Both the position numbers and the translations under genes were made by a program. From the NCBI GenBank assembly GCA_035221665.1, contig CM069140.1, forward strand, positions 38,874,001 through 38,938,000: 64,000 nucleotides of DNA. Direction: 5' to 3'. The stretch is from Okamejei kenojei (Eukaryota). The notes below the pieces were generated by a model. It was not told the origin of the DNA and searched no databases. It saw only the letters and a program-made list of their open reading frames with translations. This document shows positions 3,219 through 64,000 of the stretch, one piece after another; positions within the stretch are counted from its first letter, which is position 1; every line of letters starts with the position of its first letter.

Positions 3219-21279
<18,061 letters not shown>

Positions 21280-22625: not shown

Positions 22626-24255
22626 GCCACAACATCATATTTCCAGGTGGCAATCCAGGCTCTAAGTTCATCCACCTTTCTTACAATGCTCCTAGCATTA
22701 AAATATACACATTTTAGAAACCTACCATCCCTTATTCTCTGTCTATTATCTTTTTCCTCTTTCTAGCCTACATTTTGGGTCTGAGTACTTTCCTTCTCTG
22801 CCTCTTGCCCCACACCCTGTCCCGTAGCCCCCTCTACCCGAGTCCCTCCCCCCAGCCTTTCTAGTTTAAAGTCTCCCCAGCAGCCTTTGCAAATCTCCCT
22901 GCCAGGATATTGGTCCCCCTGGGGTTCAAGTGCAACCCGTCCTTTTTGTACAGATCATGCCTTCCCCAAAAGAGGTCCCAGTGATCAAGAAACTTGAATC
23001 CCTGCCCACTACACCAGTCCCTCAGCCACGCATTTATCCTCCACCTCATTCCATTCCTACTCTCACTGTCACGCGGCACAGGCAGTAATCCTGAAATTGT
23101 TACCCTTTTGGTCCTTCTCCTTAACTTTCCCCCCAACTCCCTAAATTCTTCTTTCAGGACCTCTGCTCTTTTTCTGCCTGTCATTGGTACCTATGTGTAC
23201 CACAACATCAGGCTCCTCTCCCTCCCTTTTCAGAATCTTTTGGACACGTTCCGACACATCCGAGACCCTGGCACCAGGGAGGCAAACTACCATCCGGGTC
23301 TCCCGACTGCGTCCACAGAATCACCCATCCGACCCCCTAACAATAGAGTCCCCTATTACAATTGCCCTCCTCTTTTTGCTACCCTTCTGAGCATCAGGGC
23401 CAGTCTCTGTGCCGGAGGCCCGGCCGCTGTTGCTGCCCCCAGGTAGGCTGTCCCCTCCAATCGTACTCAAACACGAGTACCTATTTTCCAGGTGTACAGT
23501 CACAGGGGTACTCTCTAGCCCCTGCCTCTGCCCCTTGCCCTTCCTAACTGTGACCCTCAGTGTCTGCCTCCTGTGGTCTGGGAGTGACTACCTCCCTGTA
23601 GCTCCTCTCTATGACCTCCTCACTCTCCCTGACCAGATGGAGGTCATCGAGCTGCTGCTCCAGGTTCCTAACACAGTCCTTTAGGAGCCCCATCTCGACA
23701 CACCTGCCGCAGATGTGGACGTCTCGAGGGCTATCAGATTCCCTGACCTCCCACATCTGACATCCACAACAGTACACTGCCCTGGCCTTCATACTCCCCC
23801 CCCCTTACACAGGATACAATATCAACACAATACAAAGTACACTACAAACTGCTGGAATCTGACTGCCAATCAGCTGCTTACCCTAGTCCACTTCCCACCA
23901 ATCAGCGTATTCCTCAAAAAAAACCCGAAAAAAAACACTTCTCCGAATGGAACGTTATGGATTTCGGCGAGCCCCGCGCTGGATTTTAAACCTTACCGGT
24001 CGGGTGTCGCTCCTCCCCCTCCTCTTCCAACGGCTCCTGTGGGCCTCTGAAAAAAACAAGCCACATGCTGGATTTTAAACCTTACCGGTCGGGTGTCGCT
24101 CCTCCCCTTCCTTCTCTTCCAACGGCTCCTGTGGGCCTCTGAAAAAACAAGCCCCGTGTGGATTTTAAACCTTACCGGTCGGGTGTCGCTCCTCCCCCTC
24201 CTTCTCTTCCAACGGCTTCTATGGGCCTCTGAAAAAACAAGGGCTCCTGTGGGCC
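22626..24255 (-). mobile_element. CR1 LINE 5' portion: tandem-repeat 5' UTR, ORF1 (Zn finger plus SGNH esterase) and start of the ORF2 endonuclease
   Basis: YCCGCQMWEV..HICGRC, AIVIGDSIVR and DGLHLNPRG. ORF2 begins NARSIVRKVDELRAW..YDVVA and is then truncated. Confidence 0.85.
23979..24241. repeat. 3 x ~89-bp tandem monomers at the CR1 5' end
   Basis: GGATTTTAAACCTTACCGGTCGGGTGTCGCTCCTCCCC recurs at about 23981, 24070 and 24160. Confidence 0.9.
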
Positions 24256-27021: not shown

Positions 27022-27120
27022 AGTCTGAAGAAGGGTCTCGACCCGAAACGTCACCCATTCCTTCTCTCCAGAGATGCTGCCTGTCCCGCTGAGTTACTCC
27101 AGCTTTTTGTGAGTGTCTTC
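27022..27120 (+). ncRNA. Minimal hammerhead ribozyme motif in a Penelope-derived repeat (best-preserved copy)
   Basis: CTGAAGA (27025-31), A, stem II GGGT-CTCG-ACCC, GAAA (27045-48), then CGTC with a putative GUC cleavage triplet ending at 27052. Confidence 0.55.
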
Positions 27121-28652
27121 AGCTGGTGAGAGTTCAGGCACAGTGGGTAGTTTATTGGAGAATCACAGAACATCCTACCATTTTCATGATAGCAATAACA
27201 GGATTATGAGGTGATTGCATAAATTGGACAGTCCTGGAGATGCATGCATGGATTTTATGTCACAAATGCATTGATTTAAGCTCTTGCCCATCGCTGGGAC
27301 ATACATCAATAGAGCAAAGGCAGCACAAAGCGTGTAGACGTTCCTTGAGCCTTTCGGCTTGGTATGTTGTCATCTAATACAGTTCACATTAATTCAGCTC
27401 ATCACTCTGTGATGAACAAAATGCTTTATGGAGCATCATAAATGGCTCCTGGAGAATAGGTTTCTCAACAGGAAACATAAATTATGCTATACCGTGTTTC
27501 GTTGCTTTAAATAAATTCACAAGATGAAGATGTTCATCAGAGATATTGGCTGGTACACCAAAGCATGTTGCCAATACTTCAGGTCCTGGAAAGACCCAGG
27601 ACATGGACTGGCATGTATTCAAAGTATCACTGCTCCCTACTCCATATTTGCAGATTTCAAGCCACTGAGGTGAACCAACAGAGTCACAAGGGAAGAAAGC
27701 AAAGAGGCGTGAAACATGCAGATTCATGATAAGCAACATACACTCATCTGAGAAGGAGTAATGTTTTCCTCAGAGACGTCAGCAGTTCTTGGACCCCTCG
27801 AATAACTGTGGACCTCCAATTCTGCCCAACATAGGCTCAATGGTGTTTTCCTAGCCGTGCACTTCATTGTTCTTGGAGTCCAGTGATAGGATGTGGAACA
27901 GTACAGCAGAGAAAGAGGACCTTCAGCTCACAATGTGCCGAACATGTTGCCAAGATCAACCGTTACCTGCCTGCAGATAATCCATATCCCTTTATTCGCT
28001 GCACATATATGGATGTGCCCATCAAAAAATCTATTAAATGCCACTATTGTATCTGCCTCCACCATCAGCCCTGGCAGCACATTCCCGGCACTCACCACCC
28101 ACAGTGTAAAATAACCTGCTCCACTCATCACCTTTAAACTTTGCCTCTCACACCTTCACCTGCACGATTAATTTTTCATATTTCTTAACATTTCTGTATA
28201 TTAGAGTCAGCTACATCCAGGTTGTGGCTGCCATGGATGAAGGCAGACATCATGTTTTCACGTTCTATATCCTTGACAGATACAAAATGAATCAGAACAG
28301 CAAAGGGATGGTTTGCAGCCAATGTTGTTTTCTCCAAAATACCCAGAGCTGGTGACAATTTAACCTTGTTCATTGCCTGCAACATGTGTCTTGTCCTCTG
28401 CCCATTTCTCTATTTGGCCACCTTTCCTTTCACAATAAGACCCTTCAGATTTCATATATGTGAAATGACTAAATGCTTCCAGAAAATACATATTGTATGT
28501 GTAACATGCGCTTCATTCCCTTAATCTATGTTCAATTCAATCAAGTTACCCAAGATGGGTCTGTTTTTATGGTTTGGTGGTTCCTCTGGCTCGGAGGATT
28601 AATTTCCCTCCAGATAGTTATCTGCAGTTGAGACCAACTACTTTTATAATGT

Positions 28653-28850
28653 GTGGGAATGAACTGCAGATGCTGGTTTAAACTGAAGATACACACAAAA
28701 GGCTAGAGTAACTCAGTGGGACAGGCAGCATCTCTGGAGAGAAGGAATTGGTGACGTTTCAGACAGTTCTTCAGACTGTAGAAGGGTCTCGACCTGAAAC
28801 GGCACTGAGGTGCTGCCTGTCCTGCTGAGTTACTCCAGCTTTTTGTGTCT
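28653..28850. mobile_element. Palindromic Penelope-derived insertion (inverted plus direct copy)
   Basis: Minus then plus copies of the same repeat, flanked by a 16-bp duplication ACTACTTTTATAATGT (28637-28652 and 28851-28866). Confidence 0.75.
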
Positions 28851-28971
28851 ACTACTTTTATAATGTACTGTCTTATTTATTTGGCCTTTTGAAAGAGGAC
28901 AGACTTTCTACGATACAATACAATAACATTTTATTCATCCCCGGAGGGAAATTGGTCTGCTGACACAATAA

Positions 28972-29480: not shown

Positions 29481-32400
29481 AGGTACACAAAAACTTGAAA
29501 TTGAAAACAAAAAGAAAAAGACAAGCAACTATTGGTTGGCTGCCGTGTGCAGAGCACCTTCACCGGAACAAATCATCAAACAAACAAACCTAGACTTATC
29601 CCCTGCACCGGGTCCGCATTTGTTCTGCCACCGTCCCTCACAGCGGTCCCCCCATATCAGGTCCCCCATTATTCTTCACGGCGTTCCCCCCACACCGGGT
29701 CCCTATTGTTTTCCCCTCACGCTCATCGACAGCGAGGTTCTACCGCCACCAAGGCTCCCGTTGCCTTCTAGGCCCACGTGGCCATCAAGGCCCAAGTTGC
29801 CGCAAGTACTACAGACTTCTGAAAAATGATTTGCTCATTTTTATAATATTTTGTTGTTCTGGGATGCTTACCATCTTGTGGTATTTTTATTTTAGTGCTG
29901 TTAACTTTTGTTGATGAAGTACCCATTAGAATATATGACTATTATTTGTTTTACCTGTGAGTTTGCAATGGAACACGATTACATAATATAAAAACAAATA
30001 ATGTAAATGCTGGAAATCTGAAATTAAAACTGAAAAATGGTGGGAATAATCAGCAGGTCAGGTGCCATTTTTGGACAGGTTTTATGTTGAAGGTTAGAAA
30101 TGAAACAAGCAGAGAGAAATGTGGAAGAAATGTGCTCAGGAGTCGAGAATGCCTGGAGAAGATGTAAATAGGAAGAGACAAATCGTTTTCTCAAAAGAAT
30201 GCAAAAAAAAGGAAATGTGAGGAACAACAGGAATAGCTAATTAGTTGACTTAATCCAAAAGCTGTGAAGTGCCAAGTTAGACAGTGAACGGGGTGCTGCT
30301 ACTTGAGCTTACATTGAATTTCATTGAAACAGTGTAGGAAGCCAAGAATTGATTTCAGATTGGAATGGGAGGGATAATTAAAATGACAACCACTTGGAAG
30401 TTCAGGGCATGCTTGTGCGCTGAATGAAGATGTCCAATTAATAAATCATTTAAATTCTCTTAAATTGAGGAATGGGCATACATTGTGCATCCCCAGCACT
30501 TTTTAACTCTGGTTTTCTCTTTTTTCTCTCTCATTTTCTCAGATAATAGAATCAAAATGCAAGCATGGGTGGTAGAGGGAAGTGCTTCTAAATATTTCCC
30601 CAATTACAAGATTTGAGGACACCCCACTATTGGTCTCTGCCTCAGCAAGAGCATCAATTGTGTCACCAATCCTCAGTCTGCTGTTAATGGGCTTGAACAG
30701 ATTGACCCAGGGGTCAGTCTGGAACTGGAAATGGATCAGGGTTGCTGGATTGGGGGGAGAGGAGGAGGAGTTGAATCAGGCAAGAGACCGAGTAGGGAGT
30801 TTCAGAAACTTAGCAGGGCAGAGAGTGGGGGAGGTCAGAAGCTGCTTGGGGAATATCAGGAACAGGATGGGGTGGTAGGAGTGTCAGATACCCATTGAGT
30901 GGGAGAAGGGTCAGGAGCTGGGTGGGTGTGCCAGGAGTTAGAAACATAGAAAATAGGAGCAGGAGGAGGCCATTCGGCCCTTCGAGCCAGCACCGCCATT
31001 CATTGTGATCATGGCTGATCGTCCTTCTTCATAACCCGTGCCTGCCTTCTCCCCATATCCCTTGACTCCACTAGCCCCTGGAGCTCTAAATAACTCTCTC
31101 TTAAATCCATCCAGTGACTTTGCCTCCACTGCCCTCTGTGGCAGGGAATTCCATAAATTCACAACTCTCAGTCTTAAATGAATTCCCCTTTATTCTAAGA
31201 CTGGCCCCTGGTTCTGGACTCGCCCAACATTTTCCTGCATCTAGCTTGTCCAGTCCTTTTATAATTTTATATGTTTCTATAAGATCCCCATCATCCTTCT
31301 AAACTCCAGTGAATACAAGCCTAATCTTTTCAATCTTTCCTCATATGACAGTCCCACCATCCCAGGGATCAATCTCAAGAACCTACGTTGCTCTGCCTCA
31401 ATCACAAGGATGTCCTTCCTCAAATTAGGAGACCAAATACTCCAGATGTGGTCTTACCAGAGCCCTATAAAACTGCAGAAGAACCTCTCTACTCCTATAC
31501 TGAAATCCTCTTGTTATGAAGGCCAATATTCCATTAGCTTTCTTCACTGCCTGCTGTAATTGTAAGCCAACTTTCAGTGACCGGGGTACAAGGACGCCCA
31601 GGTCTTGCTGCACCTCCCCCTTACCTAACCTAACCCCATTGAGATAATAATCTGCCCGCCTGTTTTTGCCGGCAAAGTGGATAACCTCACATTTATCTAT
31701 ATTATACTGCATCTGCCACGCATCTGCCCACTCACTCAACCTGTCCAGGTCACCCTGCAACCTCCTAACATCCTCTTCACAGTTCACACTGCCACCCAGC
31801 ATTGTGTCATCCACAAACCTGCTAGTGTTGCTCCTAATTCCCTCTTCCAAATCATTTATATATATGGTAAACAGTTGCGGCCCCAACACCGAGCCTTGCG
31901 GCACTCCACTCACCACTGCCTGCCATTCTGAAAAGGATCCGTTCACTCCTACTCTGCGTCCGGTCTGCCAACCAATTTTCTATCCATGTCAACACCCTAC
32001 CCCCGATACCATGTGCTCTAATTTTAGTCACCAGTCTCCCGTGCGGGACCTTATCAAAGGCTTTCTGAAAGTCTAGATACACTACATCCACTGGCACCCC
32101 TTCATCCATTTTACTTGTCACATCCTCAAAAAATTCCAGAAGATTAGTCAAGCATGAATTTCCTTTCATAAATCCATGTTGACTTGGACTAATCCTTTTA
32201 CTGCTATCCAAATGCCCCATTATTACCTCTTTAATAATTGACCCCAGCATCTTTCCCACCACCGAAGTCAGGCTAACTGATCTGTAATTCCCCGTTTTCT
32301 CTCTCGCTCCTTTCTTGAAAAGTGGGATAACATTAGCTATCCTCCAATCCACAGGAACTGATCTTGACTCTATTGAACATTGGAAAATTATCACCAATGC

Positions 32401-33438
32401 GTCCACTATTTCTAGAGCCACCTTCCTGAGGACCCTGGGATGCAGACCATCAGGTCCAGGGGATTTATCATCCTTCAGTCCCATTAGCCTACCCAATACT
32501 ATTTCTCTTTTAGTTTTATTCTATCCCTAACTTCTCTTGTCAGCCACGGTTGCCTCCTACTCCCTTTAGAATCTTTCTTCCTTTTTGGAATGAATTGATC
32601 CTGCGTCTTCTGGATTATGCCCAGAAATTCCTGCCATTGCTGTTCCACTGTAATTCCTGCTAGGATCCCTTTCCAGTCTACCTTGGCCAGCTACCCTCTC
32701 ATGCCTTCATACTCCCCTTTGTTCAACTGCATCACTGACACTTCCGATTTAACCTTTTCCTACTCAAATTGCAGATTAAAACTATTCATATTATGATCAC
32801 TACCTCCAAGCGGTTCCTTTACCTCGAGTGCTCTTATATTATCTGGTTCATTGGACAACACTAAATCCAGAATTGCCTTTTCTCTGGTCGGCTACATTAC
32901 AAGCTGCTCTAAGAATCCATCTCGGAGGCATTCTACAAACTCTCTTTCTTGGGGTCCTGAACCAACTTGATTTTCCCAGTCTACCTGCATATTGAAATCC
33001 CCCAGAATCCAAAGAAAACATTTGTGCAAACCAAAAGACATTGGGGGACTTTCACTTCCGAACTTTTTGTATTATTATTGGGCAGTGCATATTAAGAATA
33101 TAATTTACTGGTTGGACAGTTCTACCCAACAGACAGAATGGATAAGAATGGAGAAAGAGGACTGTTCTCCTTGTAATATAGGAGCGATCCTCTTCTCCCC
33201 GATAAAACTGAAGAACACAATATATAAGAATAACCCAATTGTACATGATACAATAAGAATTTGGAAACAAATAAAATTATCCTTAAAATTAAGAAACCTA
33301 TCATTGTTAATGCCAATAGTGAATAATCCTTCATTTAAACCATCTCTGATTGATAAAACATATAATCAATGGGAAAGAATGGGAATTAAAAGGATCTGTG
33401 ATATGTATGAAATGGGAAATCTGTTATAATTCCAACAA

Positions 33439-34046
33439 TCTATCTGTATATACTTTTAAAACTGTGTGTGTGTGTCTGCCGACCACCGTCCGGCCGGCTA
33501 GCTGTCACATTCCGTTTTTTTTTCAGATAAGATTTTCGCCCTTTGATTCCCTGCTCCGCCAAAACCAGACCCTCAGAAGCCGCCGTTTTTTCCATTTCGC
33601 CAGACGTTATGCTTGTACATTACCAAAGGCGCTACTCATTACATTTAGACATCTTTAAGTACACAATTTTTAATAAAATCCTTCCCCCCCCCCCCCCCCC
33701 CCCCCCAATTTTTCAAGTTCCATTGTGTGATGTCACAATGCCCAATGCTCACAGATGTCCAATTGGAACGGATCTCATTTACATCTGCTCTTGCACCAGC
33801 CCCGCCCCCCCCCCCCACCTGATGTTCCAGCACGTTCCATTGTGTGATGTCACAATGCCATCCCTCACAGATGTCCAATCAGAATTGATCTCATTTACAT
33901 CTGCCTTTGCCCCAGCTCCAGCCTCCCCCCGCCTGTGTCGCAGCATGTTCCATTGTGTTATGTCACAATGCCATCCCTCACAGATGTCCAATTGGAATGG
34001 ATCTCATTTACATCTGCCTTTGCCCCAGCCCCAGCCCCAGCCCCCG

Positions 34047-36182: not shown

Positions 36183-38701
36183 AATTTAATTCAATTTAAA
36201 ATTTTACATAGATTATATTACTCAAAAACTAGACTGAATAAATTCTATCCAAATACTTCCCCCATTTGAGATAAATGTCTATCCCAAAATGCAACTATAA
36301 CACACTCTTTTGTCTCCTGCATAAAACTTTATAAATTCTGCAGTGATATTTTTGAAATATTTACAAAATTATTTAAGATTAAAATGGACCCTAATACTGA
36401 AATGATTATATTTGGAGTAATGGAAGATGGGAATGAACTGAACTCATCTTAAAATTTATTTTTTAATTATGGGTTAATAACGGCAAAAAAATTTATCCTT
36501 AACTTTTGGAAAAATACAACCATACCAACGCTTAAAATGTGGATTTCAAACATGTTGGACACTGCACATCTTGAGGAAATGTGATTCCTCCTAATAGATA
36601 AATCAGACCAATTTTTAACAAGTTGGTCTCCATTTGTCGATTTTTTGGAAGCATATGGTGCAACAAAACCGTAGAAGCTAACTGTTTCAGGATTGGGTGA
36701 GGGATAGTCAAGGATATAGATAACGATCTCCTTAATCTCTTACTTTCTACTCTTCTTTTCCCTTTTTCATTCTCAACTTTCTTTTTTCACACTTTTTTCT
36801 TTCTCACACACTATATATCACATGTTTCTCTATGTTTTATTATCTACTCTCTTTTTCTTTTTCATTATTAAAAAAATTTAAAAATAAGAAGCTGTACATA
36901 AAAAGTAATATGTCAATATATATTAGGCACCATGGTGCCATATTCCTGTACTTCTAATAAAATAAAAAATAAAAAATTAAAAAATTAAAAAAAAAAGAAA
37001 TCCCCCATCACCACAGTGGCATTACCTTTGTTACATGCCAGTTTTAACTCCTGCTGCAACTTACACTCTACATCCGGGCTACAATTTGGGGGTCTGTAGA
37101 TAACACCAATTAGTGTCTTCTTGCCTTTACAATTCCTCAACTCAATCCACAGTGACTCTACCTCATCAGTCCCTATGTCTTCCCCCGCAAGGGACTGAAT
37201 TCCATCCCTCACCATCAGAGCTACCCCACTCCTCTGCCCACCTGCCTGTCCTTTCTATAGGATGTATAACACTGAATATTATGTTCCCAGGCCCGATCCT
37301 CCTGCAGCCACGTCTCAGTAATCCCCACAATGTCATATCTACCAACCTGAGTAGAGCCTCAAGCTCATCTACTTTACTTCTTATACTTCACGCATTCATA
37401 TACAATACTTTTAATTCCTTACGCATCTCACCTTTCACATCGATCCCTATTACACGTGGCCATACACTCCTATCCCTTTGTGAGCTTCCTTTCCCATTAA
37501 TTCTGGGGTAATTAACTATCCCTTTACTCTCTTTCCCTTTAACTCTGTCCTCGACTATCCCATTTGACACCCCACCCCCCTTATTCAGTTTAAAACCACC
37601 CGTGTAACAGTGGCAAACCTGCCTGCCAGAATGCTGGTCCCCCACCTGTTAAGATGCAATCCGTCCCTTTTGTACAGTTCTCCCTTACTCCAAAACAGAT
37701 CCCAGTAATCTAAGAATTTAAATCCCTGCCCCCTGCACCAGTTCCTCAGCCACACATTCAGGTCCCGTATCTCCCTGTTCCTGCTCTCGTCAGCACAAGG
37801 AACTGGAAGCGAACCGGAGATAACAACCCTGGAGGTCCTTTTCAGCATTTTTACGAGCTCTCTAAAGTCACGCTGCAGAATATTCATCCCTTCATTCCGA
37901 CATTGTTTGTGCCGACATGCACTACCACTTCCGGCTGTTCACCTTCGCCCTTGAGGATTTTCTGCACTCTGTCCATGGCATCCTGGATACTGGCACCAGG
38001 AAGGCAGCACACCATCCTCGAATCCTGTCTGTTGCCGCAGAAACCCCTGGCCGTACCTCTCACACTGGAGTCTCCAACTACAATGGCGTTGCCTGACGTT
38101 GACCTCTTTGGTTTTGGCTCAACAGCCGTTTTTGTTTCGCAAGCCAGTCCGCCACTCAGTGTGATAACGTCTTCTGTCCCGACAGCTTCTAAGTGGGTGA
38201 AACCTGTTCACAAGAGGTACAACACCCGGGGACCTTTGCATTCCATGTTTCCCTCCCTTTCTATCACCCACCTTCTCTCTTCCAGTATCTTAGGTGTAAC
38301 AATCTTACTGTAGGACTTGTCGATTAACGACTCAGTTTCTCGGACGAATCCGAGGTCATCCACTTGCTTCTCCAGTTCCTCAACACGGTCCTTCAGGAGC
38401 TGTACCTGGATGCACTTCTCAGATTTGTAGCAGCCAGAGGCACCAGCAGTGTCCTTGACCTCCCACATACTGTGAGTATCAAACTGAATCAGCTTGCTTG
38501 ACATCTCCTTCTTTCGTCTCTCCCTCTCCAGTGTTTTGCGTAGCCTCCTCTCCTCAGCCTCCTCGCCAAAGACTCTCGAGCCAAACTCGTACTTTTCTCA
38601 CAAGGCCGCTCCCTCACTGCTGCTCCCCAAGAGCCGTCCTGCTTATATTGACTGATAAATTGCCTAATTTACCAATTTACAAACCATACTCCTCAGTTTT
38701 A

Positions 38702-39120
38702 AACTGTTTTCCCCCTCTGACTCACTTCTAACTCTCCTCCCACTCAGGGTAGAGCCAATCAGTGCTTTCTCTTGCTTCTCTTTGTTGCTGTTGCTTCAAA
38801 ATCCACGGGAGCTCTGAGTAAAGTCTTCCCGTGCTTTGCCTCTCCTTTTCAACTGTTTCCCCCCTCTGACTCACTTCTAACTCTCCTCCCACTCGGACTA
38901 GAGCCAATCAGTGCTGTCTCCTGCTTCTCTTTGTTGCTGTTGCTTCAAAATCCACGGGAGCTCTGAGTAAAGTCTGCCTGTGCTTTGCCTCTCCTTTTCA
39001 ACTGTTTTTCCTCTCTGACTCACTTCTAACTCTCCTCCCAGTCGAGCTAGAGCCAATCAGTGCTTTCTCCTGCTTCTCTTTGTTGCTGTTGCTTCAAAAT
39101 CCACGGGAGCTCTGAGTAAA
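38702..39120. repeat. 3 x ~149-bp tandem monomers in the CR1 5' UTR
   Basis: AACTGTTT..CTGACTCACTTCTAACTCTCCTCCCA..GAGCCAATCAGTGCT..GAGCTCTGAGTAAA repeated three times. Confidence 0.9.
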
Positions 39121-40523
39121 AAAAATGTTTTAAAAAAAATTGGCAGGGATAAAGCACGGGGAGTCAGGGACTCAGCTGGTGACATCGGACTAACATTCTG
39201 AACCCTAAATGTTGGATTTATGGTGGCAACTGCCTTAGGGCAAACATGATTGGGTTTCCTATTAATGTAAGCAATGTGTAAACATCACTTTCAGGCCTTG
39301 GCACAATCTGTTTTTTTCCCCATTTCCAACATGACAGATTGCACATCTGGACAGAAGCCCCAGCTGCTGTCCTCACCTATATTGTAGTCCATCTGTCTGT
39401 TCCCCACACAGAAGAGCTCTGCACATCTATATTGATGCACCTGTGGACCAATAAGAGAGACAGTGCATTACAAGTTAGGCTTACAAGTTAGGAGAAAATT
39501 ACATTCGACATTTTTACAGTAGAGGTACACGTATTCTACCCTCTATAACAGAATGTTTTAGGGGGCTGGACAACAATTGTCCAAAGTTTATATTCAAATA
39601 CCTTGTGAGATCCGACTGATCTCCAGCCCGAGTTTTGCAAATTTATGTGACAATGTTGTGCCCTTGATAACACTGCCCAATGGAAAGCCTAACATGTTCT
39701 GAAAGAAGAAAGGTGCCTGAATTATTAGAGGTTGGCGATCAGACTATATGCCATGACTCAAACAAAAGACCTATGACCAAAACAATAACCCAAGGTACAA
39801 AGTATTTAACTGATATCTCACACGCAGTCCTCCATACCCTCCCCAGTTATGATGTCTCACGCCCTAATAGTCCCGCAGTCCTCAATTACTAATTACTTCA
39901 CCGTTATCTTATCTTGAAATGAGTCAAACTGCTTCCCCATTCCACATAATAGCAGGGTGAGCTATTCCATGCACACTGTACAGTCCAAAGTGCCTAGCAT
40001 GAATGTGCTGTCCAAAGTGCCTAGCATATCCCTGATACCATAACAAAAAAATAGTCTGCTTGCAGTAATCCTTTTAACAAGAAGTTTGATTCTACTTTTA
40101 CGGTATAATTGCTGTAGTTTGAGAGGTACATCTAGAAGGCCATTCTGAATGTTGTTCAGACATGTGTTTTGAGCAGTGTTGTTGGCCTTCCAATGCTTAG
40201 TTCAATGAGTTCCTGCTGCAACTCCAAAACTCAGGAACCATCAGGCTTTTAGGTATTTTTCTGTTTATTATTTCATGGGTGAGGCAGAAGAACAGAAGTA
40301 CAGAAACCCGTGAGAGGGATTCTTTCCCTCTTGCTGAGAGGTTATGGGTGATGTATCTTACTTGGAGATCACTCTTTAATCGGTCCATCAGTTCCTCTGA
40401 GGTGAAGCAGACTCTGAAACAGTGAGTTTGAATGGGAGGCAGGCAAGTTTGCATCGCAACCAGAATGGATGATGACATAGATTCCTGCTGTGAGGCTCAA
40501 TGTGCAGTGAACCTGGAGAGGTT

Positions 40524-43354
40524 AGAAACATAGAAACATAGAAAATAGGTGCAGGAGTAGGCCATTCAGCCCTTCGAGCCTGCACCGCCATTCAATATGA
40601 TCATGGCTGATCATCCAACCCAGTATCCTGTACCTGCCTTCTCTCCATACCCTCTGATCTCTCTAGCCACAAGGGCCACATCTAACTCCCTCTTAGATAT
40701 AGCCAATGAACTGGCCTCAACTACCTTCTGTGGCAGAGAATTCCAGAGACTCACCACTCTCTGTGAGAAAAATGTTTTCCTCATCTCGGTCCTAAAGGAA
40801 TTCCCCCTTATCCTTAGACTGTGACCCCTTGTTCTGGACCTCCCCAACATCGGGAACAATCTTCCTGCATCTAGCTTGTCCAACCCCTGAAGAATTTTGT
40901 AAGTTTCTATAATATCCCCCCTCAGTCTTCTAAATTCTAGCAAGTACAAGCCGAGTCTATCTAGTCTTTCCTCATATGAAAGTCCTGACATCCCAGGAAT
41001 CAGTCTGGTGAACCTTCTCTGTACCCACTCTATGGCAAGAATGTCTTTCCTCAGATTTGGAGACCAAAACTGTACGCAATACTCCAGGTGTGGTCTCACC
41101 AAAACCCTGTACAACTGCAGTAGAACCTCCCCACTCCTATACTCAAATCCTTTTGCCATGAATGCTAACATACCATTTGCTTTCTTCACTGCCTGCTGCA
41201 CATGCATGCCTACTTTCAATGATTGGTGTACCATGACACCCAGGTCTCGTTGCATCTCTCCTTTTCCTAATCTGCCACCATTCAGATAATAGTCTACCGT
41301 CCTGTTTTTGCCACCAAAGTGGATAACCTCACATTTATCCACATTATACTGCATCTGCCATGCATTTGCCCACTCACCCAGCCTATCCATGTCACCTTGC
41401 AGCCTCCTAGCACCCTCCTCACACCTAACACTACCTTCCTGCTTAGTGTCATTCACAAACTTGGAGATGTTGCATTCAATTCCCTCGTCCAAATCATTAA
41501 TATATATTGTAAATAGCTGGGGTCCCAGCACTGAGTCTTGCGGTACCCCACTAGTCACTGCCTGCCATTCTGAAAAGGACCCGTTTACACCTACCCTTTG
41601 CTTCCTGTCTGCCAGCCAGTTCTCTATCCACATCAATACTGAACCCCCAATACCGCGTGCTTTAAGTTTGTGTACTAATCTCTTATGTGGGACCTTGTCA
41701 AAAGCATTCTGAAAGTTTAGATATAACACATCCACTGTTTCTCCCTTATCCACTCTACTAGTTACATCCTCGAAAAATTCTATAAGATTCGTCAGACAAG
41801 ATTTACCTTTCGTAAATCCATGCTGACTTTGTCCAATGATTTCACCACTTTCCAAATGTGCTGCTATCCCATCTTTAATAACTGACTCTAGCAGTTTCCC
41901 CACTACTGATGTTAGACTAACTGGTCTGTAATTCCCCGTTTTCTCTCTCCCTGCTTTTTTAAAAATTGGACTTATATTAGCTACCCTCCAATCCTCAGGA
42001 ACTACTCCAGAATCTAAGGAGTTTTGAAAAATTATCATTAATGCATCCACTATTTCTGCTGCTACTTCCTTGATTACTCTGGGATGTAGACTATCTGGCC
42101 CTGGGGATTTATCGGCCGTTAATCCGTTCAATTTACCTAACACCACTTCCCAGCTAACCTGGATTTCACTCAGTTCCTCCATCTTATTTGACCCCCGGTC
42201 CCCTGCTATTTCCGGCTGATTATTTATGTCTTCCTTAGTGAAGACGGAACCAAAGTAGTTATTCAATTGGTCTGCCATGTCCTTGTTCCCCATGATCAAT
42301 TCACCTGTTTCTGACTGCAAGGGACCTACATTTGTTTGAATTAATCTCTTTCTCTTCACATATCTATAAAAACTTTTGCAGTCAGTTTTTATGTTCCCTG
42401 CCAGTTTTCTTTCATAATCTATTTTCCCTTTCCTAATTAAGCCCTTTGTCCTCCTCTGCTGGACTCTGAATTTCTCCCAGTCCTCTGGTAGGCTGCTTTT
42501 TCTGGCTAATTTGTATGCTTCATCCTTTGTTTTTAAACTATCCCTAATTTCCCTTGTTATTCATGGATGCACTACCTTCCCTGATTTATTATTTTACCAA
42601 ACTGGGATGAACAATTGTTGTAGTTCATCCATGCAGTCTTTAAATACCTTCCATTGCACATCCACTGTCAACCCTCCTGGCCCTTGCCAGTCTATCTTGG
42701 CCAATTCACGTCTGATACCTTCAACTTACCTTTGTTTAAGTTCAGAACCCTTGTTTCTGACTTAATTATGTCACTCTCCATCCTAATGAAGAACGCAACC
42801 ATATTATGGTCACTCTTGCCCAAGGGACCATGCACAACAAGACTGTTAACTAACCCCTATTCATTACTCAATACCCAGTCTAGAATAGCCTGCTCTCTCG
42901 TTGGTTCCTCTACATGTTGGTTTAGAAAACTATCCCGCATACATTCCAAGAAATCCTCTTCCTCAGCACCCCTGTCCATTTGATTCACCCAATCTATATG
43001 TAGATTGAAGTCACCCATTATAACTGTTTTACCCTTGTTGCACGCATTTCTAATTTCCTGTTTGATGCCATCCCCAACTCCACTACTACTATTAGGTGGC
43101 CTGTACACAACTCCCACTAGCATTTTCTGCCCCTTAGAATTTCGCAGCTCTACCCATATCGATTCCACATCCCCCAAGCTAATGTCCTTCCTTTCTATTG
43201 CATAAATCTCCTCTCTCACCAGCAACGCTACCCCACCTCCTTTTCCATTCTGTCTATTCCTCCTGAATATTGAATATCCCTGGATGTTCAGCTCCCAGCC
43301 TTGGTCCCCTTGGAGCCATGTCTCAGTGATCCCAACTATAGCATAGTCATTAAT
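40524..43354 (-). mobile_element. Young CR1 LINE, 5' truncated in the endonuclease, with a 582-aa open RT frame (40611-42359)
   Basis: IVGITETW..RPP..GDFN and a complete RT C-terminal frame, but the catalytic FADD reads FVND. (TTTCTATG)n tail; possible TSD AGGTT. Confidence 0.92.
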
Positions 43355-45559
43355 AGGTTCACAAGGTTCAGCGTGTTTAGCAGTCGAATAATACTCGGCA
43401 CCTGTTGGAAGTGGCTCCTGCTCCCCTTCTGCCTGGAGCAAAGGTTTTTAAAGGCCGGCTAATGACTCGAATATCCATTCCGCCTGGTTCTGTCTCATGC
43501 CAGGAGCCCATATCTCTGTTGTGCTAACTAGAGCTGATGGCAATGAGACTCACTGGCAACCTATACCCTGGCAGAGACACCTGAAGGTGCAAGGAGAAGA
43601 TACTGAATATACAGATATTCTGACTAAAGAATATACTGATATCTCACGGACAGTTCTTCATATCCTTCCCATTACCCTGCACCTCTGGTAACAGGTGCTG
43701 CGTAACTAATGAGCTGCCCCCCCTTCCCCCACTTCACCGAGCAATTAATACTGGCAATTAATACTGTTGCAGCTGCTACTCAGTAGGAACATGGGACTTG
43801 GTGTTTGATCTTCTGGAAGGATACTTACCTCTGTAGTGCCTGTGCCAATGAAGACAATTGTTGCCGCAGAGGCACTACAGCACAGGAGCAGGCCCTTTTA
43901 GCATAGCGTGTACATGCCAGCCATCAAGTACCTATCAATGCTATTTCCAATTTCTTTCATTTGGCCCATAGCCGTCTATGTCATGGCATTTCAAGTGCTC
44001 ATCTAAAGACATTACAAGTTGTGCGAGTTTCTACCCCCGCCACCAATCCAGCAGACTCGAAACGTCATCCATTCCTTCTCTCCAGAGATGCTGCCTGTCC
44101 TGCTGTGTTACTCCAGCATTTTGTGTTTATCTTCAGTTTAAACCAGCATCTGCAGTTCCTTCTTAAGCATAAAAAAATGTCTGGCTCAGAGACAGCAAAT
44201 GCACAGGCAAGGATGTCAACATCTGATAAAGAAAACCAGGCTCAGAGGCAGCAATAATGGCAGTAATGGAGCTAATCCCGGGTCCAAATGGATACATGAA
44301 ATGGCTAAGGAGAAAACAATAATAGGGATCTAAACTAGAGTGTAAGTTTGTGTATGCCCACTAGACATTGGGCAAGAAGCATGATAAATCTAACAAAATG
44401 GAACGGTCGAAGAAAGTGGTGGCAAGGTTGATCTGGCTGATGCCAGCACGTCGGTGAAACCTGGACTTTTAAAAAAAAGTATCGTCAAGGGAGAGTGTGT
44501 AGATGGGAAATGGAAGAGATCAATTGAAATCCTTTAGTGCTCCAGAAGTTACAACGCAGGAGAGTGGAGAAGATAGCTGAGGTAAGGCAGAAACCAACCA
44601 GAAGATAGGTAGTGCAGGAAATGTTGCTGAATTAATTCTGCAACAAAGATATTCATGTATGAAGAAAGATTTTGTAGATTAGGCCTCTGCTCTCATGTGA
44701 AGATAAAAACGAATGTTGGTAATCTTAATGAAGGATATAAGGCTCTGGCCTGTGTGTGACTCCAGACCTAGAGCAAGGTGTTTGACCTCCAATTGCCCTC
44801 TGAAATGGCTAATTAAACTGCTGTCCAAGAGCAGCCACGGAAGGGTGAAAGAAACCCTGGCTTTGCCAGCAACGCCCAGAACCCATGAATGCAATAGCCT
44901 TGCTTTTGTGTAAAGAGAAGAAAGCAGATAAATAAAACTTTTACTTTCTAAAACAACCTCAAAAAGCGAGTATATCTGAATTATTTTAAAATGTCAGCTT
45001 AAGCAGGCTTCGTAACTGAGCTACTTGTTTGATTTATTTCTGGCTGAATCACTATGTCATTATGAAGTTGCAGTTCTTGACTTGTTGGGAAACAATAAAA
45101 ATCACACAGTTGTAGCAAGGTAGCCTTTCCAGGTTTAAGGTGGTTTGTCAAGATTATCTAAAAAGAACTTTACACTGTATTCAGCCTGATCTGGGAGTGT
45201 CAGAGGTAATTGTATGTGGATATTTTTGTTAGATTTATTCAGGACAACACCTTTAGATTATTTTCTGAATAATGTCTAATAAATAACTTCAAGACACTGC
45301 CTCCTTGTTATACAATATTTGGACAGCGTGTGTATATTGACTATGGAAGATTGCAGCATGCCATTGCAATATTTCCATGGAATGGTTATTTGTGTTTTAC
45401 AATTTACTATGCTTTGAGAATACGTTAATCAGGGAGGATATCAAGTTTTTGCCATGATGATGTATGTCAGGAAGGCTGTGTTTCACAACAGCAGCCAACA
45501 AAGCAGCTACAAATTTCACAACATTTCTGGTACAAAACAGAAATTAAAGATAAAAATCA

Positions 45560-45791: not shown

Positions 45792-61322
<15,531 letters not shown>

Positions 61323-62989: not shown

Positions 62990-64000
62990 CAACATAGAAC
63001 AGTACAGCACAGGAACAGGCCCTTCAGCCCACAATGTTTGTGCCGACATGACGCCTAGCTAAACTGATCTAATTTGCCTTTTCCTGATCCATATCCCTCT
63101 ATTCCCTACACTTCCATGTGCCTATCTAAAAACCTCTTAAACATTGCTATCATATCTTCCTCCACCACCACCCCTGGCAATGTATTCCAGACCCCACCAC
63201 CCTCCATGTAAAAAACTTGCCCCACCCATCTCCATTAAACATTCCCACTGTCACCTTACAGCTGTGCCCTCTAGTAATGGACCTTTCCACCCTGAGAAAA
63301 AAGATTCTGACTGTCTACCCTATCTAATTTCTTGCCAAATCCTGCTGGATCTCTGCTAGAACCATTGCATTAACTTTCCCAAGCACACCGTAAAGTGCCG
63401 AAAATCCTGGCAGGTCAGGCAACATATGTGGAGAGAACAGATAATGCTTCAGATGGGGACACCTTATGCCTGAAGACATCTGAGTCTGATGAAGGATCCC
63501 AGCCTGAAACATGGCATTTCCATTCCCTCCCCAGCTGCTGCCTGAGTGGCTCCAACACTTTGTGCTTTGCTCAAGTTTCCAGCATCTGCAGTTCCTTGTG
63601 TCGCCATAAACTTTCTCATCCTCCACATTGCAGATCTTGTCTCAGGGTATCATAAAACATAGAACAGTACGGCACAGGAATGGGCACTTCAGCCCACAAT
63701 GTTCGTACCGAATCTGATGCCTAGCTAAACTGCTCTCATCTGCCTGCACATGATCCATACCCCTTGCACTTCCATGTGCCTATCTAAAAGCCTCCTAAAC
63801 ACTGCTATGGTATCTGTGTCCACCAACATCCCTGCAATGCACTCCAGGCCCCCACTTGCCCTGCATATCTTGCACTGACTTGCCCTGCATATCTCCATTA
63901 AACTTTCCCCCTCATTTTTTAGCTATGCTCCTCTATTGTTGGACATTACCACCCTGGGGAAAAAAAAGTTCTGAATCTCGACCCTATCAATGCCTCTCGT
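62990..64000 (-). mobile_element. Two CR1 3' fragments (about 62990-63330 and 63655-64000) around a Penelope-derived insert (about 63400-63605)
   Basis: Repeated ACATAGAACAGTAC..CACAGGAA..TTCAGCCCACAATG CR1 3' ends, and a degenerate hammerhead CTGATGAAGG..GAAAC at about 63486. Confidence 0.6.

Follow-up and report, generated by a model that had tools for sequence, protein, structure and literature searches.

Within a stretch of 64,000 nucleotides from the skate Okamejei kenojei (contig CM069140.1, positions 38,874,001 to 38,938,000 of the forward strand), referred to here as the window, a short repeat begins at 27022 and carries the boxes of a hammerhead ribozyme. The motif CTGAAGA-A-GGGT-loop-ACCC-GAAA-CGTC is present at both 27025 and 12898 in the window sequence. 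The locus raises the question of whether such copies form a separate SINE-like family, some members of which could cut the pre-mRNA of CYP4 genes from within their introns, as the first-pass annotation proposed, or whether they are parts of a larger mobile element.

Anatomy, conservation and copy number of the hammerhead repeat

The predicted minimal hammerhead lies at 27025..27052 on the + strand, as judged from sequence, pair counts and the consensus presented in PMC4209133. It consists of the CUGAAGA box (27025-27031), an extra A (27032), a helix II of 4 bp (27033-27036 with 27041-27044), GAAA (27045-27048), the palindromic ACGU (27048-27051), and C17 (27052), while helix I has 2 bp only (27023-27024 with 27053-27054). 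When 27022 is taken as position 1, core residue C3 is position 4 (27025) and the predicted cut falls between positions 31 and 32 (27052/27053); the first-pass placement of the cut after C27052 is correct. The core of CUGANGA, GAAA and NUH is intact at 27025 and at 12898.

The consensus of minimal hammerheads in PMC4209133 includes an extra nucleotide after A9, a G10.1-C11.1 pair and a palindrome, and these motifs are reported there both as scattered single copies and within Xena, Poseidon and Neptune elements of fish. The skate repeat shares with the minimal hammerheads of metazoan Penelope-like element (PLE) pLTRs the core boxes, the unpaired nucleotide between 9 and 10.1, the G10.1-C11.1 pair, and a palindromic 15.2-16.2 region without helix III, as well as an occurrence mostly as single dispersed copies with few in full elements. 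The extra A and the ACGU palindrome, pointed out earlier, are thus present but do not set the repeat apart; since both belong to the published consensus, the ribozyme is of a known kind. As a ribozyme finding it is ordinary, because PLE minimal hammerheads with these traits were described in 2014. Helices II and I measure 4 and 2 bp here, compared with 7-8 and 4-5 bp in schistosomes and 6 and 2 bp in the D. virilis variant, the latter being the only one that the 2-bp helix I matches. The same source reports no cleavage of a monomer and low cleavage of dimers.

Across copies, the unpaired nucleotide is A in 190/198, the 10.1-11.1 pair is G-C in 132/195 and G-U in 37/195, and the third pair of helix I is A-C in 73/84. 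The palindromic 15.2-16.2 region, which offers no stable helix III, reads CGTC in 46/78 motif matches, and the remainder is mostly CpG decay. In 201 aligned copies, core columns without CpG are 91-97% conserved, and non-CpG columns average 94% conservation in the core versus 87% downstream, where the subfamilies differ. This difference is weak evidence, from the alignment, that fits selection in master elements. Helix II was said to vary while keeping its pairing, which could not be upheld: its four pairs in the 201 copies of this genome show 7 double changes where independence predicts 6.2, and broken pairs number 104, with 104.0 predicted. The commonest helix II changes represent CpG decay. 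Two of the three stem II variants cited earlier differ in the loop only and the third is a one-sided change from U-A to U-G, and between subfamilies the helix change is limited to one-sided U-A/U-G as well.

The hammerhead fold is predicted to be less stable than the minimum-energy fold in four of four contexts, by 6.2-11.8 kcal/mol. Shuffled versions of the 27022 copy fold as well as the copy itself (z 0.4-0.5), and the z values are -2.9 for the 12895 copy and about -1 for L064, a complete element described below; these values do not establish that a fold of the entire unit is conserved. Predicted folds of window 12895-13024 and L064:2650-2778 have the tail paired to the unit's middle part, and in L064 to the core as well. 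In this model, the tail-core pairing may hold the ribozyme off, and the structure may be bound by the reverse transcriptase (RT).

A profile built from three copies gave 376 matches in 1.064 Mb and none in the reversed control, 23 matches within the 64-kb window, and 311 in 80 evenly spaced 10-kb samples. The extrapolated genome load is roughly a million profile matches, with arms and fragments counted separately. An exact 28-mer occurs 48,215 times in the 2.76 Gb searched (control 0), against about 4,000 motifs in coelacanth and 9,000 in Xenopus in PMC4209133, where the methods differ. After the removal of 7 duplicate rows, 369 matches remain, 215 of which cover the ribozyme; core, helix II and cleavage triplet are all intact in 36 of the 369, and the same holds for 2/23 copies in the window. 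The hammerhead search suggested as a check came out negative, as none of the 17 matches of an Rfam scan at E<=10 was a hammerhead, for which the near absence of helices I and III is the likely reason.

All ten degenerate sites listed by the first-pass annotation proved to be copies of one repeat of 95-130 nt. The 27022 copy is an intergenic solo pLTR stub without a tail (27022..27122, +) that begins 3 nt upstream of the hammerhead core, and the 12895 copy is a solo tailed stub with an intact core (12895..13024, +); no target-site duplication was detected at either. The other solo copies are a tailed stub with a 14-nt duplication and a broken core (18383..18498, -), a short stub with a 12-nt duplication and a broken core (14021..14121, +), a tailed stub that starts inside helix II (44054..44165, +), and an old tailed copy with a CUGAUGA core that has lost the cleavage triplet (63483..63597, +). 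Four decayed copies lie in 8999..10092, at 9086(-), 9511(+), 9962(-) and 10057(+). Head-to-head pairs are found at 28655..28852, with a 16-nt target-site duplication, a tailed arm on the - strand and a short arm on the + strand, and at 20266..20423, with a 15-nt duplication, a short - remnant and a tailed + arm. Two decayed pairs of a tailed and a short arm are located at 20810..21012 and 14528..14672.

The parent Penelope-like element

Upstream of the motif, seven of the first ten loci run into the 3' UTR of a PLE or the end of its GIY-YIG open reading frame (ORF), and one reaches an RT domain. In a search with that RT piece, 150 of 59,479 first-look candidates were scored and 20 with long open frames were examined. 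L063 and L064 are complete and are arranged as partial tandems, namely a truncated copy, the repeat, a frame of 1197 codons, the 3' UTR and the repeat again; L063 has a 13-nt target duplication. The hammerhead repeat is on both flanks of L063, L064 and L066, and is the pLTR of the element. The protein of the intact element, 1185 aa from its first Met, is encoded by a single ORF and has an RT with a YIDD motif and, at its C terminus, a GIY-YIG domain; the Pfam models RVT_1 (E 5e-6) and GIY-YIG (E 0.004) match it, neither reaching its curated cut-off.

The L064 protein has a C-x4-C-x2-C linker ahead of its endonuclease, and a CX2-5CxxC linker in this place is the criterion of the Neptune clade given in 10.1101/2021.04.23.441226; this points to a Neptune-like element. 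Besides the linker, Neptune-type PLEs as covered in that source and in PMC3846280 share the single ORF of RT and C-terminal GIY-YIG, CCHH-type residues, partial tandems, an inverted 5' arm, an optional tail at one end, target duplications, and 5' truncation. In contrast to them, the ORF here is long and includes about 300 aa rich in Pro and Ser, copies with an ORF are far fewer than stubs and two-arm hairpins, and the target duplications range from 10 to 18 nt as opposed to 8-10 in Adineta. No description of this PLE family in skates was found in the literature searched, and the supplements of PMC4209133 or 10.64898/2026.07.22.740005 may list it.

The window itself holds a decayed, 5'-truncated PLE at 54633..55448 on the - strand, made up of a broken GIY-YIG end (55448-55062; tblastn E 8e-17 to the end of the L064-type protein), a pyrimidine-rich 3' UTR, and a degenerate pLTR (54723-54633). 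This agrees with the earlier remark that the repeat terminates a GIY-YIG fragment at 54635-55420. A second GIY-YIG fragment at 53874..54065, related to 55206-55393, had been listed on the - strand; by blastn and tblastn it is on the strand (+) opposite to the element at 54.6-55.4 kb.

Six subfamilies of the repeat were distinguished, and every one of them has copies that run on into the shared 3' UTR; the ORF is within 900 nt in 13/52 UTR-linked or pyrimidine-flanked copies. The 27022 copy belongs to a sister subfamily, with 5/41 copies UTR-linked and the ORF end within 900 nt in 1/6 of the UTR-linked or pyrimidine-flanked copies tested. By its testable sequence features, the repeat belongs with the minimal-hammerhead pLTRs of endonuclease-bearing PLEs, its cleavage being predicted. 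The proposal of a very-high-copy, PLE-derived minimal type I hammerhead family was borne out by the 28-mer count and by the pLTRs of intact PLEs, whereas a separate SINE-like family is not supported, as the repeat flanks intact ORFs and all six subfamilies include long copies. The dispersed repeats are very probably 5'-truncated pLTR stubs of the autonomous PLE, likely inserted by the element itself from RNA that the hammerhead had not cut.

Ends of the copies and their replication

The 3' ends form two peaks at columns 92-98 and 123-129 (about 96 and about 129). Direct repeats of at least 10 nt flank 99/340 copies, some of the 99 being internal to the element, against 25.7 in shuffled pairs. 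There are 64 head-to-head pairs, with three arms entered in two pairs each; of the 51 that could be classified, 44 join a short and a tailed arm, 5 two tailed arms, and 2 two short arms. Unpaired copies are short or tailed at 108:108, and the discordance within pairs has p=6e-8. Long copies with an inverted arm agree with the short-plus-tail pattern in 6/6 cases. The 44/51 pairs of unequal arms fit priming at two sites. Two adjacent RT start sites explain the tail of the Anolis Poseidon element PAc in PMC11167929, where the template is uncut RNA and the ribozyme requires protein. That element shares two 3' end points past the hammerhead, the tail between them, and an apparently uncut template with the skate element. 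It differs in that its ORF starts within helix II and here about 165 nt after the core, and a pile-up of 5' ends at the ribozyme edge, which is seen here, is not described for it in the available part of PMC11167929. Head-to-head palindromes are attributed to self-priming instead in PMC3846280.

Of the young-subfamily copies, 21/32 sampled and 18/30 further ones (39/62) have their 5' end at -3..+14. Another 17 extend into the UTR or ORF, 5 begin at 15-28, 1 begins beyond 35, and none of the 62 begins at the cut site (29-35); the 62 include both arms of some pairs and are not fully independent. Since no 5' end lies at the cut site, the template was likely uncut RNA, as found in vitro for the anole element. 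The stop at the 5' edge of the ribozyme could be an RNA start, and the chances of this against a stall or a template switch are about even. Positions -1 to +5 match an initiator consensus, the sequence upstream of position 1 differs between subfamilies, and an RNA start at the ribozyme edge would fit with the 2-bp helix I, which it would explain. However, 17/62 copies continue past position 1, and with an RNA start at that point they would call for template jumps that leave no seam, or for longer RNAs. The 5' stop would also fit a stall, or template switching at a quasi-palindrome centred on position 3.

A cap-derived G at the 5' junction was tried as a sign of the RNA start, and the test gave no positive result, with 42 A, 36 G and 22 T in 100; several of its loci are duplicates of larger repeats, with at least 10/30 in three groups of duplicated segments. 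A few extra nucleotides, rich in G, separate position 1-2 from the target duplication in three solo young copies (L100, L139 and L085). In most subfamilies, a pyrimidine tract and CAG precede the core (L064:2600-2650), and a donor-like site is located at the ORF start, about 2810. From these sequences an intron or a back-splice is conceivable; no GT..AG intron ending at the CAG was found among the 15 joints listed (90 further) from four contig runs, whose RNA nature is guessed and one of which is probably DNA. At five places in C1 (L157, L159, L163, L171 and L172; 93-98% identity), a PLE hairpin insertion is embedded in a larger segment, which measures at least 1.7 kb and contains an internal repeat of 107 nt.

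Among other origins, it is improbable that solo stubs are themselves transcribed and copied again in trans as a SINE-like non-autonomous family. In its favour, 103/219 ribozyme-covering copies are solo, both RT start sites and possibly a promoter are contained in a tailed stub, an internal promoter (along with an intron) is reported for the D. virilis Penelope pLTR (PMC2377424), and pLTRs suffice in trans according to PMC3846280. Against this origin, none of the six subfamilies is solo-only, young solo copies resemble the pLTR of intact elements, and their 5' junctions are heterogeneous. An origin as retrozyme-like monomers from self-cleaved, circularised RNA is less probable still. Non-LTR retrozymes, which occur in one chondrichthyan, share with the skate copies a derivation from pLTRs, a non-coding nature and a type I hammerhead (10.64898/2026.07.22.740005), and a few short partial tandems exist here (L008). 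Yet retrozymes in that source form tandem arrays in which every unit has its hammerhead, whereas the copies here occur solo or head-to-head, and their limits are not set by cut sites: the window's 62 TRF rows contain no tandem array of the unit, sequence is kept on both sides of the cut site, where no young 5' end falls, and only 6/36 intact copies have an intact neighbour on the same strand within 2 kb.

Under the favoured origin as truncated pLTR stubs, the element's own RT and GIY-YIG endonuclease would insert the stubs from RNA uncut by the hammerhead. Reverse transcription would be primed by each of two staggered nicks, at one or other of two neighbouring internal sites, in the way shown in vitro for the anole element, and copying would often halt at the 5' edge of the ribozyme, with an RNA 5' end there as the most likely cause. 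Hammerhead cleavage apparently has no part in making the copies here. The ribozyme would likely be selected in master elements only, its cutting there depending on a dimer or on the help of protein, and in dispersed copies it would be a passenger in neutral decay, predicted not to cut alone.

A further step, held tentatively and somewhat more apt to fail than to hold, is that the stubs document how PLEs replicate in vivo, with an RNA start 3 bases before the core, a strong-stop-like cDNA and a jump to the 3' repeat. Both target strands, once nicked, would be primed by the protein at the two internal sites that lie side by side, and each cDNA would at first extend for just 95-130 nt to the RNA 5' end, like retroviral strong-stop DNA. 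A jump to the 3' repeat would be needed for copying the ORF, failed jumps would leave solo stubs, and annealed twin cDNAs would give hairpins of a tailed and a short arm. By titles and abstract openings, no account of twin priming or strong-stop DNA in PLEs was found in the literature searched. PLE replication is still poorly understood, and the value of the finding lies there: hundreds of thousands of sharp-ended insertions offer a test of the RNA start, of two-site priming on both strands, and of the role of the hammerhead.

CYP4 genes and other repeats in the region

Two tandem CYP4-like genes on the + strand, mapped by exon motifs, extend from about -75.4 kb to 21.2 kb (gene 1, last exon near 21091) and from 45.9 to 67.6 kb (gene 2, first exon near 45924). 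Gene 1 begins about 75 kb upstream of the window and has very long introns. The 27022 copy lies between the two genes, unless the 3' UTR of gene 1 exceeds 5.8 kb. The statement that several copies are sense within CYP4 introns is right for ten copies in the window; the 27022 copy is not among them, being intergenic.

That CYP4 pre-mRNA is cut by the sense copies in its introns, with an effect on expression, a notion raised with that statement, is unsupported and most unlikely. One intact sense copy does exist, at 12895 in intron 9 of gene 1 (the 20266..20423 pair is in intron 11 of the same gene), and it is the only one among 34 intragenic copies, of which two are intact, one per strand. There is no strand bias, as 20 sense and 14 antisense copies (p=0.39, a small sample of 34) indicate neither depletion nor a significant excess. 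The same transcript holds no intact dimer partner for the 12895 copy, helix I has 2 bp, and the hammerhead fold of this copy is predicted at 11.8 kcal/mol above the minimum, the top of the range given above. A single schistosome minimal hammerhead, moreover, showed no cleavage in vitro in PMC4209133.

The span of gene 1 includes two copies of a segment about 20 kb upstream of the window (L014/L016 and L015/L017), which is either a local duplication or an assembly duplicate. Decayed LINE copies, presumably CR1-like, whose RT and endonuclease-like frames lie on the minus strand, occupy window positions 10478-12655, 30939-32469 and 40522-43296. Minisatellites are found at 641-893 (period 33 nt), 23970-24241 (90 nt), 33717-34038 (113 nt), and 38697-39120 (149 nt).
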